A stretch of DNA of 60,092 bases, counting the filler, from Malassezia furfur (lineage: Eukaryota), in the NCBI GenBank assembly GCA_052055015.1. It is 6 parts of 6 records of this genome, joined end to end, with 100 filler letters (N's around TTAATTAATTAA, not from the genome) between each part and the next. Parts side by side here need not be neighbours in the genome. Positions count along the whole stretch, not along the records: positions 20,325 to 30,269 come from JBQJIT010000406.1; 5 more parts are not named here. The stretch is one strand, 5' to 3'. Shown here piece after piece: positions 10,140-27,009 of the stretch (within the stretch, counting starts at the first letter, position 1; each line of letters starts with the position of its first letter). A program made the translations under genes and the position numbers. The notes under the pieces were generated by a model, which was given only the letters and a program-made list of their open reading frames with translations, had not been told where the DNA came from and made no database searches.

Positions 10140-10239
10140 NNNNNNNNNNNNNNNNNNNNNNNNNNNNNNNNNNNNNNNNNNNNTTAATTAATTAANNNNN
10201 NNNNNNNNNNNNNNNNNNNNNNNNNNNNNNNNNNNNNNN
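10140..10239. other. Artificial contig spacer (N run + TTAATTAATTAA)
   Basis: 100-nt N block with a six-frame stop linker; repeated identically five times. Confidence 0.98.
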
Positions 10240-24527: not shown

Positions 24528-25239
24528 ATGCCCCCAAAGAGTACGTCGCCCCACTCACACAGTGAATGCAAAGGCTGTTGCCGGCCGTGCCCGCAAGGCA
24601 GAGGCCGCTGAGCGCAAGGCTGCCCAGGCTGCCGAGGCCCGCGAGGCCGAGGAGGAGCAAAAGTGGCAGCAGGGCGCCAAGGGCAAGTCGGCCGCTGACG
24701 AGCGCCGCGAGAAGGAGGAAGCCAAGGCGCGCAAGCGTGAGGAGCTCCGCCGCCTCCAGGAGGAGGACGAAGCTGCGACCCCGTCGAAGAAGTCCAGTGG
24801 GAACAAGAGTAACAACACCAAGCCGAGCGCGCGCAAGGGCGCACCGGCAGGGCCCAACGACCTCGACGACCTCGATCTGCAGATCGCGTCGTTCAGTGCG
24901 TCCAACCTGGACGATGCCCTCGAGGCTATGAACCTGGTCAACGACCGCAGCGACAAGGCGAGTCGCGGCGCTGCAGCGGGCGCCCTCGAAAAGCACCCGG
25001 AGCGCCGCTTCAAGGCGGCCTTCGAGGCGTACAAGGAGCGCGAGCTGCCCAAGCTGCGCGAGGAACACCCCGGCCTGCGTCTGCAGCAGTACAACGACCT
25101 GCTCTACAAGCAGTTCCAAAAGTCGCCGGAGAACCCATTCAACCAGCTGCACGTCTCGTACGATGCCAGCAAGGAGGAGAAGCTCGCTGTGCTCAAGGCC
25201 AAGCGCGACGCATCGGCGCGCCGCCTGGCCGCAGACTAG
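24528..25239 (+). CDS. CCDC124/Lso2-family ribosome-associated protein
   Basis: MPPK|MNAKAVAGRARKAE, A.NLDDAL, HPERRFKAAFEAY..LREEHPGLRLQQY..FQKSPENPFNQ. Intron 24541-24562 (22 nt). Confidence 0.88.
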
Positions 25240-25284
25240 ATGGGCACACATGCTTTCAAGAACTACGGTAGTGCAGTCTGGTAA

Positions 25285-25680
25285 AAATGTAACCAACCCT
25301 AGGTTGTGACCCGACAGGTAATTGCCGCATAGCAGCTGCCTCTAGGCCATGAAATTAGGGGGTCCTCCATCCCATGCGACACACCCGCCGTGCATGACCC
25401 ACATACACGGTAGCCGTCTTGCCACTCAGGACCCGGAGCAGACCAGCTCAGATGGCGATCAATACTCCGACTCCCTGCAAACGTGCCAAGGTGCTTGCCG
25501 TGCAGCTTCCGGTCATACAACAAACGGGGGACAACATGGGCGAGTCGCTAGCCGCTACCGCCAACCGGTCTACGCGAATGCCCACTCGCCCGCTAAGGCT
25601 CATGGATACCCAAAGGTCGGCGCATCCCTTCAGTGGTCTGCGCGCGAGCGTCCCAGAGGGACCCTCACCACGCCGGTGCG
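25285..25680 (-). ncRNA. Unassigned ~400-nt highly structured RNA candidate ending hairpin-ACAUUU
   Basis: Nested long-range stems (25438-45/25634-41, 25467-71/25616-20, 25538-45/25584-91, 25360-66/25428-34, 25388-96/25402-10). C-A mismatches on + become G-U on -. Upstream CACGTG (25738-43) lies between two convergent gene ends. Confidence 0.5.
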
Positions 25681-25778
25681 GTGGGAAAGCAAAAAATCGC
25701 GGCGCGGCACATTTTATGCCTGCAGAGGGGTGCGTGTCACGTGCTACATCGTATGGCCGCTGGCGCGCACGCTGGCCG

Positions 25779-27009
25779 CTACAGCTTCGCGCGCGGTCCG
25801 TGCGTCGAGCGCCATTCGTCCACCAGCGCGCCGACCTCAGCCGCCACGCCGTAGCTCGCTTGGTACCCAGCAGGGCCTGCATGGTGAGTAGTGCCGACAT
25901 ACCGATACCGTAGGCATGAATCACGCCCACCTCGTGGCCGTCCACCTGGAGCGGCTTGTCTAGCTCGACGCGCACGCCGCCCTCGCGCGCAGGGCGCACA
26001 CCAATGTTGTTCCGCAGCACATCCACCGTCACGTAGGCGGTCGGGTCGTTGGGATCCGCCGTCTCAGGCAGCAGTTCGGGCGCCAGTTCAACGCAGTTCC
26101 GCAGAATCCGGTCCGTCACATCCGCATTGGGCTTGAGTGTATCGGTCTTGCGCACATCAAATGTGCCACCCAGAATCACCTGTCCACTGCGCGCACGAGG
26201 AATGACATAGGTCGCGCCATCCTTGGTGATCCGGCTGTAGCACCGCGCGACCTTGGGGTCACGGAAACGCGGCGCGTACACCAGCACGGTCTGGCCACGA
26301 ATCGGGTACATCTTGTCATCCCGCACGTCTTCGAGGTTCTTGGCGCCCAGGCCCGATGCGTTGATCACCAACGATGCGCCCGGCACAAGCTCGGCCGCCG
26401 CTTTCAGCGACGGTACATAGCCCCGCAGGAAACGCACAGGCGGACCCGGAAGGTCCTTGTGCGGCTCACTGAGCCGCTTCACAAGCCATTGGAGGTAACG
26501 CGGCACATTCAAGCCCATAGACTCGAACTCGTACAGGTAGGGCGCTTCGTCGGTCGACTTGGGCTGACCGGCCGGGTACATTTTGATCTGGGATGAGTCG
26601 CAATACATACACCGCCGCATAGGTCACCAAACCAATACGTCTCGGTATCATTTTCCTTTGGGTGGAAGCACGAGAAGGGAATGAATGCGAGCATGTCGTC
26701 CGGCAGCTCCTTGCTGAGCTCACGGAACTTTTTGTAAGTCGTCGCATCGCGACGGCGCTGTGCTTCGTCGCTTCCCGCAAAAGAAAGCCAATTGGCACCC
26801 TGTGTCAGAAGCAAGACCTACCGCCCACGGGGATGCAAAACCTTGCGAGTGATAATCATGGGGAAGGTCGCGTGCAACGAACGTGACTTCGTAACCACGG
26901 GCACGCAATTCAAGCGCACTAGTAAGCCCAAGCACTGACATGAGCTCGCAAGGCCATGGTACGTACCTCCGGCTCCGACAATCACAGCTTTGGGCGTGGA
27001 CTCCGCCAT
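25779..27009 (-). CDS. D-amino acid (or D-aspartate) oxidase, peroxisomal
   Basis: VIVGAGVLGLTSA (FAD-binding), [53 protein letters not shown]-terminal AKL (PTS1). Introns 26935-26966, 26800-26821, 26588-26610, 25877-25902. Confidence 0.92.

Follow-up and report, generated by a model that had tools for sequence, protein, structure and literature searches.

A conserved RNA gene between CCDC124 and an oxidase gene of Malassezia furfur is probably a divergent snR30/U17 homologue

We analysed a stretch of 60,092 nucleotides from the Malassezia furfur assembly GCA_052055015.1 (hereafter the window), which is made of six contig pieces with N spacers at 10140, 20225, 30270, 40299 and 50203; because the pieces are separate contigs, gene order across the joints is meaningless. 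Two convergent genes enclose the interval of interest. The CCDC124/Lso2 gene lies on the plus strand (24528..25239; Pfam PF06244, E 3e-24, and PF22048, E 7e-10), with its start and short first intron predicted from the sequence. A D-amino-acid oxidase family gene lies on the minus strand (25779..27009; PF01266, E 4e-13; the start and introns are predicted) and is syntenic in three further copies of the region (L002, L003 and L004). As the initial annotation had described, the two stop codons face each other, across a gap that we measured as 539 nt (25240-25778) where 540 had been given. The translated last exon of the oxidase ends in AKL followed by the stop, which argues against an overlooked exon in the 539-nt gap. 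The tripeptide at 25779-25790 (minus strand) is AKL in the window and in L004 and AHL in L003, and we take such a terminus to be a peroxisomal PTS1-type signal. The candidate RNA gene occupies 25285..25690 on the minus strand and is approximately 400–405 nt long, and is supported by identity to L002, L003 and L004 and by alignments A1 and A5. Both of its ends are predicted: the 5′ end is an estimate from a TAAAA element and the onset of conservation, and the 3′ end is placed 3 nt past an ACA box by the H/ACA rule, in agreement with the earlier prediction of a 3′ end near 25285.

The same genome contains a second syntenic copy of the whole 3.5-kb region (L002), which is 89% identical and differs by changes of the synonymous type; in this 13.7-Mb assembly, the duplication of the window locus (L001) and L002 resembles that of a hybrid with two subgenomes or of a diverged diploid. 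Between the two copies, the RNA interval (25283-25690) was identical at 402 of 408 positions; the corresponding values were 626/675 for the CCDC124 coding sequence, 179/224 for its third codon positions (synonymous sites), 752/842 for the oxidase part and 36/50 for the spacer below the RNA. Searching metagenomes with the CCDC124 protein yielded eight loci, and ten loci were compared altogether. The closest pair, L003 and L004 (protein identity 70%), have the oxidase at the same place and carry RNA homologues with 67% and 68% identity, respectively (E 3e-24 and 5e-21 within the ten loci compared). No RNA homologue was found at the remaining six, distant CCDC124 loci (L005–L010). Four motif scans for further homologues returned one bacterial and five viral contigs, all of which were rejected; in the five checked by BLAST, the match was confined to the motif, and model R1 scored none of the six. 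The four copies represent three independent lineages only. The RNA gene is real and conserved, and its conservation is far beyond chance.

A CACGTG promoter box at 25738-43 had been noted in the gap and was confirmed in the sequence (25738..25743); it precedes the first conserved RNA block by 61, 61, 66 and 76 nt in the four copies and is a probable promoter element, presumably of the E-box/Cbf1 type. The hexamer is common on its own, with 25 occurrences in the window, and it is also found upstream of both RNase MRP genes of this genome, suggesting a general promoter element. A TATA-like TAAAA element (25712..25716, minus strand) likewise occurs in all four copies, at distances of 34, 34, 39 and 37 nt ahead of the first conserved RNA block. 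The A-tract/CGCG element listed beside the box in the initial annotation was conserved merely as a pyrimidine-rich stretch; the CGCG and the A-tract themselves were not. The RNA lies on the oxidase strand, approximately 90 nt past the oxidase stop, and might therefore be read as a structured 3′ UTR or a coding extension of the oxidase, with no separate RNA. We regard the probability of this reading as negligible, as the interval has CACGTG and TAAAA elements of its own in 4/4 copies, shows two-sided covariation, exceeds either flanking coding sequence in identity and carries at least one stop in every one of the six frames in each of the three sequences tested. Its own promoter elements, conservation and covariation support the stand-alone structured RNA gene that had been proposed for the minus strand.

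Folding energies were compared with those of shuffled sequences. In the window, the minus strand folded better than the shuffles (z −1.95, 3/100 shuffles) and the plus strand did not (z 0.24, 60/100). With 60 shuffles each, the sense z was −2.54 in the window, −4.52 in L003 and −1.69 in L004, and the antisense z was 0.25, −2.32 and 0.69, respectively; the earlier claim of a minus-strand bias holds, and the preference is moderate. The nested multibranch fold drawn in the initial annotation was not retained. Its helices can pair in the window, yet none of the five long-range or domain helices appeared in the minimum-energy fold, and most of them decayed in the homologues: the CCGAC/GUCGG helix kept one of five pairs in both L003 and L004, GGGUCCU/AGGACCC kept three and four of seven, and GCAGACCA/UGGUCUGC kept five of eight in each. 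The CCGUGUAUG helix kept three of nine pairs in L003 and none in L004, in a region that aligns poorly and with an anchor one base off register. The best survivor, GGGCGAGU/ACUCGCCC, kept six of eight pairs in L003 and seven in L004, with no two-sided changes.

The layout that recurs begins with a branched 5′ domain, continues with a hinge and a long internal rod, and closes with a 3′ hairpin of the H/ACA type and its ACA box. The branched 5′ domain (25552..25681, minus strand) is closed by an 8-bp basal stem, in which 25681-25674 pairs with 25560-25552 around one bulged base, and contains invariant blocks of up to 17 nt. Its RNAalifold consensus from three sequences had 46 pairs and 8 two-sided changes, with 96.4% of 138 cells paired. 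None of 500 shuffles reached the observed pairing, and slid partners paired at 27–51% with 0–2 two-sided pairs; both controls are inflated, as these three sequences had also served to derive the structure. The inner fold of the domain is provisional, as an alternative inner helix, CGCCRRC/GUUGGCG, also holds (28/28 cells paired). Most of the invariant letters of the domain are accounted for by internal helices, and the consensus contains no two-sided guide pocket.

The hinge (25545..25551, minus strand) is located at the H-box position and reads CUAGCGA in the window and L002, AGAAAGA in L003 and AAAACGA in L004. A strict ANANNA H box is present in one of the four copies (L004) and absent from the window copy. 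In L003 and L004, an ANA triplet directly adjoins the basal stem, CUA takes this place in the window and L002, and the sixth A comes one base late in all copies; judged from these sequences, the hinge would be a degenerate H box at best. The internal rod (25371..25540, minus strand; approximately 170–180 nt) was predicted in all four copies, its sequence being variable while the rod is kept. Near its tip, GAUCGCC (25460-25454) is invariant, and the stem under the tip was paired in 24/24 cells, with two-sided change in 4/6 columns in a register set by the motif anchors.

The H/ACA-type 3′ hairpin (25291..25364, minus strand) has a CCCUA/UAGGG basal stem, a pocket of 6+5 nt, an upper stem and a short distal hairpin. 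The minimum-energy fold was identical in all four copies, and the consensus had 23 pairs, none broken, and a single two-sided change, because the region is nearly invariant. The distal hairpin (25324..25336, minus strand; 20/20 cells paired) has an invariant UAU loop and is a candidate protein-binding element. The ACA box (25288..25290, minus strand) is present in 4/4 copies, and the flanking bases diverge around it. The pocket top lies 15 nt from ACA in L003 and L004; for the window and L002, a count from the sequence gives 16 nt. Both distances fall within the H/ACA range of 14–16. As described in the initial annotation, the window has a terminal hairpin that contains an internal loop and precedes ACA (25290-25288) and a U run; however, the U run is missing from L003 and L004. 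The end therefore appears to resemble the tail of an H/ACA RNA more than a terminator of Pol III.

Two motifs at the base of the pocket resemble the m1 and m2 docking motifs of snR30. The m1-like motif is UAAUUUCAU (25349..25357, minus strand; canonical AUAUUCCUA) and the m2-like motif is CAACCUA (25300..25306, minus strand; canonical AAACCAU), and both are invariant in the four copies. Their cores, AUUUC and CAACC, each share four of five letters with the canonical AUUCC and AAACC; the exact forms, AUAUUCCU(A/G/U) for m1 and AAACCAU for m2, are both absent. In all four copies, the two cores are unpaired (10/10 nt) and sit flush on five basal pairs, on opposite strands of the pocket base. The terminal letters of the motifs are reversed (UA/UA for the canonical AU/AU), with their mutual pairing kept. 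The initial annotation had found no intact snR30 m1 and m2, which is correct; what it missed are the diverged versions that lie flush on the basal stem of the pocket and can pair with the rm1/rm2 sites of 18S rRNA. The m1–m2 gap is 42, 42, 43 and 43 nt in the window, L002, L003 and L004, respectively, and is given as 43 nt for yeast snR30 (537-545 and 589-595; PMC9176245). From the end of m2 to ACA, the same copies have 9, 9, 8 and 8 nt; a spacing of 7 nt has been reported as invariant, with an increase of one harmless in yeast and an increase of two not among the variants described there (PMC2664660).

We then considered pairing with 18S rRNA. On the m1 side, 25355-25348 can form 8 bp with 18S 792-799, including one G-U; six of these lie within the open pocket, and the letter change in m1 keeps a G-U pair. 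On the m2 side, AACC can form 4 contiguous Watson-Crick bp with 18S 831-834 before a mismatch, where 5–6 is the norm for snR30. Targets were scanned in two modes over 6,870 nt, comprising the pre-rRNA of this genome and U2. In the snR30 mode, in which strands were read from the pocket base, sites were 10–80 nt apart and at least 5+4 bp were required, we obtained 21 bipartite sites. Two were joint-top (8+4 bp), and both used 18S 792-799, with 817-820 as the partner in one and 831-834 in the other (31 nt between the duplexes). The combination of 792-799 and 831-834 corresponds to the snR30 rm1/rm2 sites in the yeast register, a pair that was defined genetically in yeast with 31 nt between the duplexes (PMC2664660). 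Between them, 18S 800-830 forms a perfect 13-bp hairpin (−11.7 kcal/mol) flush with both duplexes, and the corresponding rRNA helix in the yeast cryo-EM structure is 806-836; this hairpin is a property of the rRNA and tests the register of the two duplexes.

At the literature-defined site, random pockets reached 8+4 bp in 25 and 6+4 bp in 482 of 2,000,000 trials; when a slack of 2 nt was allowed, the counts were 187 and 1,652 of 500,000, respectively; in these statistics the match had been spotted by eye beforehand, and the 8+4 threshold is the observed value. The 18S targets of this genome are canonical (GGAAU and GGUUU), indicating that the changes in m1 and m2 are uncompensated. Compared with a canonical core on the same 18S, duplex energies were −1.8 vs −3.1 kcal/mol for m1 within the pocket and −1.8 vs −2.7 kcal/mol for m2. 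The 8-bp m1 duplex reaches −5.5 kcal/mol, less a cost of 3.9 for opening two pairs of the upper stem. Unconstrained co-folding of the 3′ hairpin with ES6 gave no intermolecular pairs, by a method that cannot represent such a junction. The pockets of L003 and L004 are identical to that of the window, and pairing was computed on the 18S of this genome only.

A pocket of this kind could also belong to a long H/ACA pseudouridylation guide, whose 3′ pocket would select a uridine in rRNA or snRNA via its distal part; such a guide would presumably be snR42-, snR84- or snR86-like in size. The pocket top lies at a productive distance from ACA (15–16 nt); however, snR30 is described as having the same pocket-to-ACA distance (PMC7601244), so that the distance does not discriminate between the two. 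The guide-mode scan of the 6,870 nt of pre-rRNA and U2 (at least 8 bp) proposed two weak sites, 25S U279 in our own numbering (4+8 bp, 3 G-U) and ITS1 162 (5+4 bp, no G-U). The former depends on its three G-U pairs and extends into the basal stem, and yeast is not known to have a mapped pseudouridine this close to the start of 25S. Conservation of a target in ITS1 is unlikely, yet the pocket is invariant in 4/4 copies. As the 5′ domain also has no two-sided pocket, we consider a modification guide improbable and return to the snR30-like reading.

A search of Rfam, recommended in the initial annotation, gave no match at the locus: the gathering scan of the window and scans at E ≤ 10 of 25000-26000, 25275-25460 and the L003 homologue returned chance microRNA/scaRNA matches only (E 2.9–10). 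Searched genome-wide, the snR30 (RF01271) and SNORA73 (RF00045) models had no match at the RNA locus, and SNORA73 matched once elsewhere in the genome (E 2.68, 13.7 bits). We attribute the escape from family searches to the two motifs, which are near-invariant from baker's yeast to humans and are each changed here; U17 has been noted to escape BLAST (PMC2655684). The exact canonical m1/m2 pattern had no match in the genome. A looser pattern had 11 matches at 10 places (reversed control, 4), all of which fall within reading frames that run for 181 codons or more with no stop; they have 0–2 flush basal pairs vs 5 here. As the assembly consists of 1,856 contigs, the absence of a better snR30 is not proven.

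The same survey bears on whether the RNA is another housekeeping RNA that has yet to be placed, i.e., telomerase RNA, U3, RNase P, SRP or a spliceosomal snRNA. Two U3 models and the nuclear RNase P and fungal SRP models found nothing genome-wide, leaving these genes unplaced; this blank also means that the models may be blind to the lineage, and the genes are probably too diverged for them or missing from the assembly. Covariance models located RNase MRP RNA and U2 at other loci. RNase MRP RNA has two copies (L022, G000:C507:6205-6796, and L023, G000:C146:4714-5304, both minus strand; approximately 590 nt vs a 266-position model), each with TCACGTGA approximately 70–80 nt upstream. U2 was found once only (L020, G000:C27:12840-13032, minus strand), with a TATATATA box approximately 30 nt upstream; the element beyond this box is CACGCG and not CACGTG. 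The SSU rRNA model had a weaker, second match (L012, G000:C86:12153-13504, minus strand; 358 bits, 1,352 nt), probably the mitochondrial small-subunit rRNA. No housekeeping model matched the RNA interval at E ≤ 10, and a conserved pocket hairpin with ACA is, to our knowledge, foreign to U3, RNase P and SRP. Two features could be cited for telomerase RNA: a CCCUAA hexamer within the 3′ hairpin, and the potential of the 5′ domain to form a small hairpin with a GUUGG loop. However, the hexamer is the only one, is invariant and is paired in a stem, and the proposed locus of the Malassezia telomerase RNA is flanked by NDK1 and a DUF1115 gene; that RNA has an Sm site, and its template differs between species along with their repeats (PMC12506658). 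The flanks here are CCDC124 and the oxidase. That putative RNA is likewise conserved, intergenic and from the same genus, at approximately 480 nt, but its locus, template, pseudoknot and Sm site (PMC12506658) have no counterpart that we could see here. We reject telomerase RNA because of its locus and template, and a missing housekeeping RNA as a whole is very improbable.

Contacts outside the pocket were also evaluated. The invariant GAUCGCC of the rod tip can form 7 bp with 18S 650-656 (ES6 helix 1) in all four copies, and this site ranked first or second among 18S windows for three of them, a length of 7 bp being well within chance. Yeast snR30 is reported to make extra contacts, C2 and C3 (PMC4105744). 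A C3-like contact of the internal rod with ES7 was rejected, as it ranked second for L003 only and fell outside the top six in the other three copies. Antisense matches of the conserved 5′ blocks to rRNA (at best 12–14 bp with 5 G-U) resemble chance, as does a 10-bp match of a 5′ block to 25S 1274, which is broken in L003. A match of both pocket flanks to 25S near 2700 (8 bp each) was dropped because it needs the invariant upper stem to be opened. Separately, 25434-25420 (minus strand) is complementary to 25S 441-455 over 15 bp (2 G-U, −28.3 kcal/mol), of which only an 8-bp core is common to the homologues; this complementarity is probably chance.

The conserved parts outside the pocket raise the possibility of an orphan H/ACA-like RNP scaffold, in which the hairpin would serve stability only and the conserved 5′ domain would be the working part. 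Vertebrate telomerase RNA has an H/ACA hairpin that serves stability in this manner. The invariant 5′ blocks and rod-tip motif fit such a scaffold, as do the weak, uncompensated 18S pairing and the degenerate H box. However, it leaves unexplained why m1/m2-like cores occur in the exact basal register and why they fit rm1/rm2 with the 13-bp spacer hairpin and the 42–43 nt gap, the internal helices already account for most invariant 5′ letters, and the cell would then have no identifiable snR30. We therefore give the scaffold little credence and prefer an snR30-like RNA.

On this preferred reading, the RNA would most likely be a stand-alone, non-modifying box H/ACA snoRNA of the snR30/U17 type for 18S rRNA maturation. 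It resembles S. cerevisiae snR30 (Rfam RF01271) in its stand-alone gene (PMC2664660, PMC12095548, PMC9176245), in the order of 5′ domain, hinge, internal hairpin, 3′ pocket hairpin and ACA (PMC7601244), in the motifs at the pocket base facing ES6 rm1/rm2 sites 31 nt apart around a hairpin, in the m1–m2 gap of 42–43 nt and in a 5′ domain without a guide pocket. The differences are also clear. The yeast RNA is 606 nt long vs approximately 405 nt here, and its 5′ domain is described as dispensable and variable (PMC7601244), whereas that of the RNA here is branched and well conserved. Yeast snR30 has AUUCC/AAACC vs AUUUC/CAACC here against unchanged 18S targets, and the terminal stem pairs are reversed here. 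Its m2-to-ACA spacing is reported as 7 nt vs 8–9 nt, and the H box is degenerate here; the yeast H box is described as needed for accumulation and that of human U17 as dispensable for in vitro assembly (PMC7601244). Vertebrate U17/SNORA73 and S. pombe U17 (RF00045; PMC7601244) are alike in the 3′ hairpin plan, the target and a variable 5′ part; the length here, between 325 nt for S. pombe and 606 nt for S. cerevisiae, is near the former (PMC7601244), and vertebrate U17 is intronic, unlike the RNA here. All 14 RNAs in Table 1 of PMC7601244 keep m1 AUAUUCCU(A/G/U) and m2 AAACCAU at the pocket base, whereas the RNA here keeps neither. Trypanosoma brucei snR30 offers a precedent for an altered m1 with a longer rm1 duplex; there, however, rm1 has reportedly changed in compensation and m2 is invariant (PMC2664660), whereas here the 18S is canonical and both motifs have changed.

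Held to strict membership, the RNA falls outside snR30/U17 on motif spelling, on the 7-nt spacing and on the Rfam score. The acceptance of the T. brucei RNA despite its altered m1 indicates that pairing, not spelling, is the functional criterion, although the spelling still lowers the claim of membership. Overall, we hold with good confidence that the RNA is the divergent snR30/U17 homologue of this yeast lineage and acts like snR30. Of the two options offered in the initial annotation, a long, divergent H/ACA RNA that lacks a clear H box fits, and an undescribed ncRNA is probably wrong. The RNA does not represent a new RNA class and is probably a newly recognised, diverged form of an essential snoRNA that is already known. 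A more specific and tentative possibility is that it is an altered snR30 with weakened 18S docking motifs and a lost H box, in which docking has partly moved to the 5′ domain or to the GAUCGCC rod tip.

We propose a mechanism in which the gene, the fold and the 18S complementarity come from the present analysis and the remainder would be carried over from yeast. The RNA would be transcribed by Pol II from the CACGTG/TAAAA promoter, trimmed at its 3′ end to ACA+3 and assembled with Cbf5-Nop10-Nhp2-Gar1. The basal strands of the pocket would then dock on ES6 around the 13-bp hairpin, forming a three-way junction that presents no uridine to Cbf5, Utp23, Krr1 and Kri1 would be recruited, and the cleavages A0–A2 would be licensed. 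The weakened m1/m2 pairing may be tolerated, or may be offset by protein contacts or by a longer m1 duplex, with 8 bp in place of 6. The UAU loop of the distal hairpin lies 18–21 nt past m1, and one might guess that its position is near the yeast U565/A566 pair bound by Krr1, a placement that remains a guess because numbering differs between papers and the yeast terminal loop is dispensable. The distal part of yeast snR30 is described as essential, with a dispensable terminal loop (PMC2664660), and contacts Krr1.

We found no report of a basidiomycete snR30/U17 in the literature searched; the supplements of PMC5824354, on the snR30 family in 147 fungi, may include some. The available portions of PMC5824354, PMC5209728, PMC5379013 and PMC12511879 name none, and the main text of PMC5824354 does not mention Malassezia. 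In PMC5379013, snR30 appears in a list of snoRNAs from the vesicles of four fungi, one of them a basidiomycete, and the species concerned is not specified. The RNA described here is a seed for finding snR30 in basidiomycetes, for which a survey has counted many H/ACA families among the losses. As both of its motifs differ and the target has stayed the same, it can also gauge the share of base pairing vs protein in docking. If docking has indeed moved, parts of the RNA that are dispensable in baker's yeast would be essential in this organism, and many of the H/ACA losses scored in basidiomycetes would be failures of detection.
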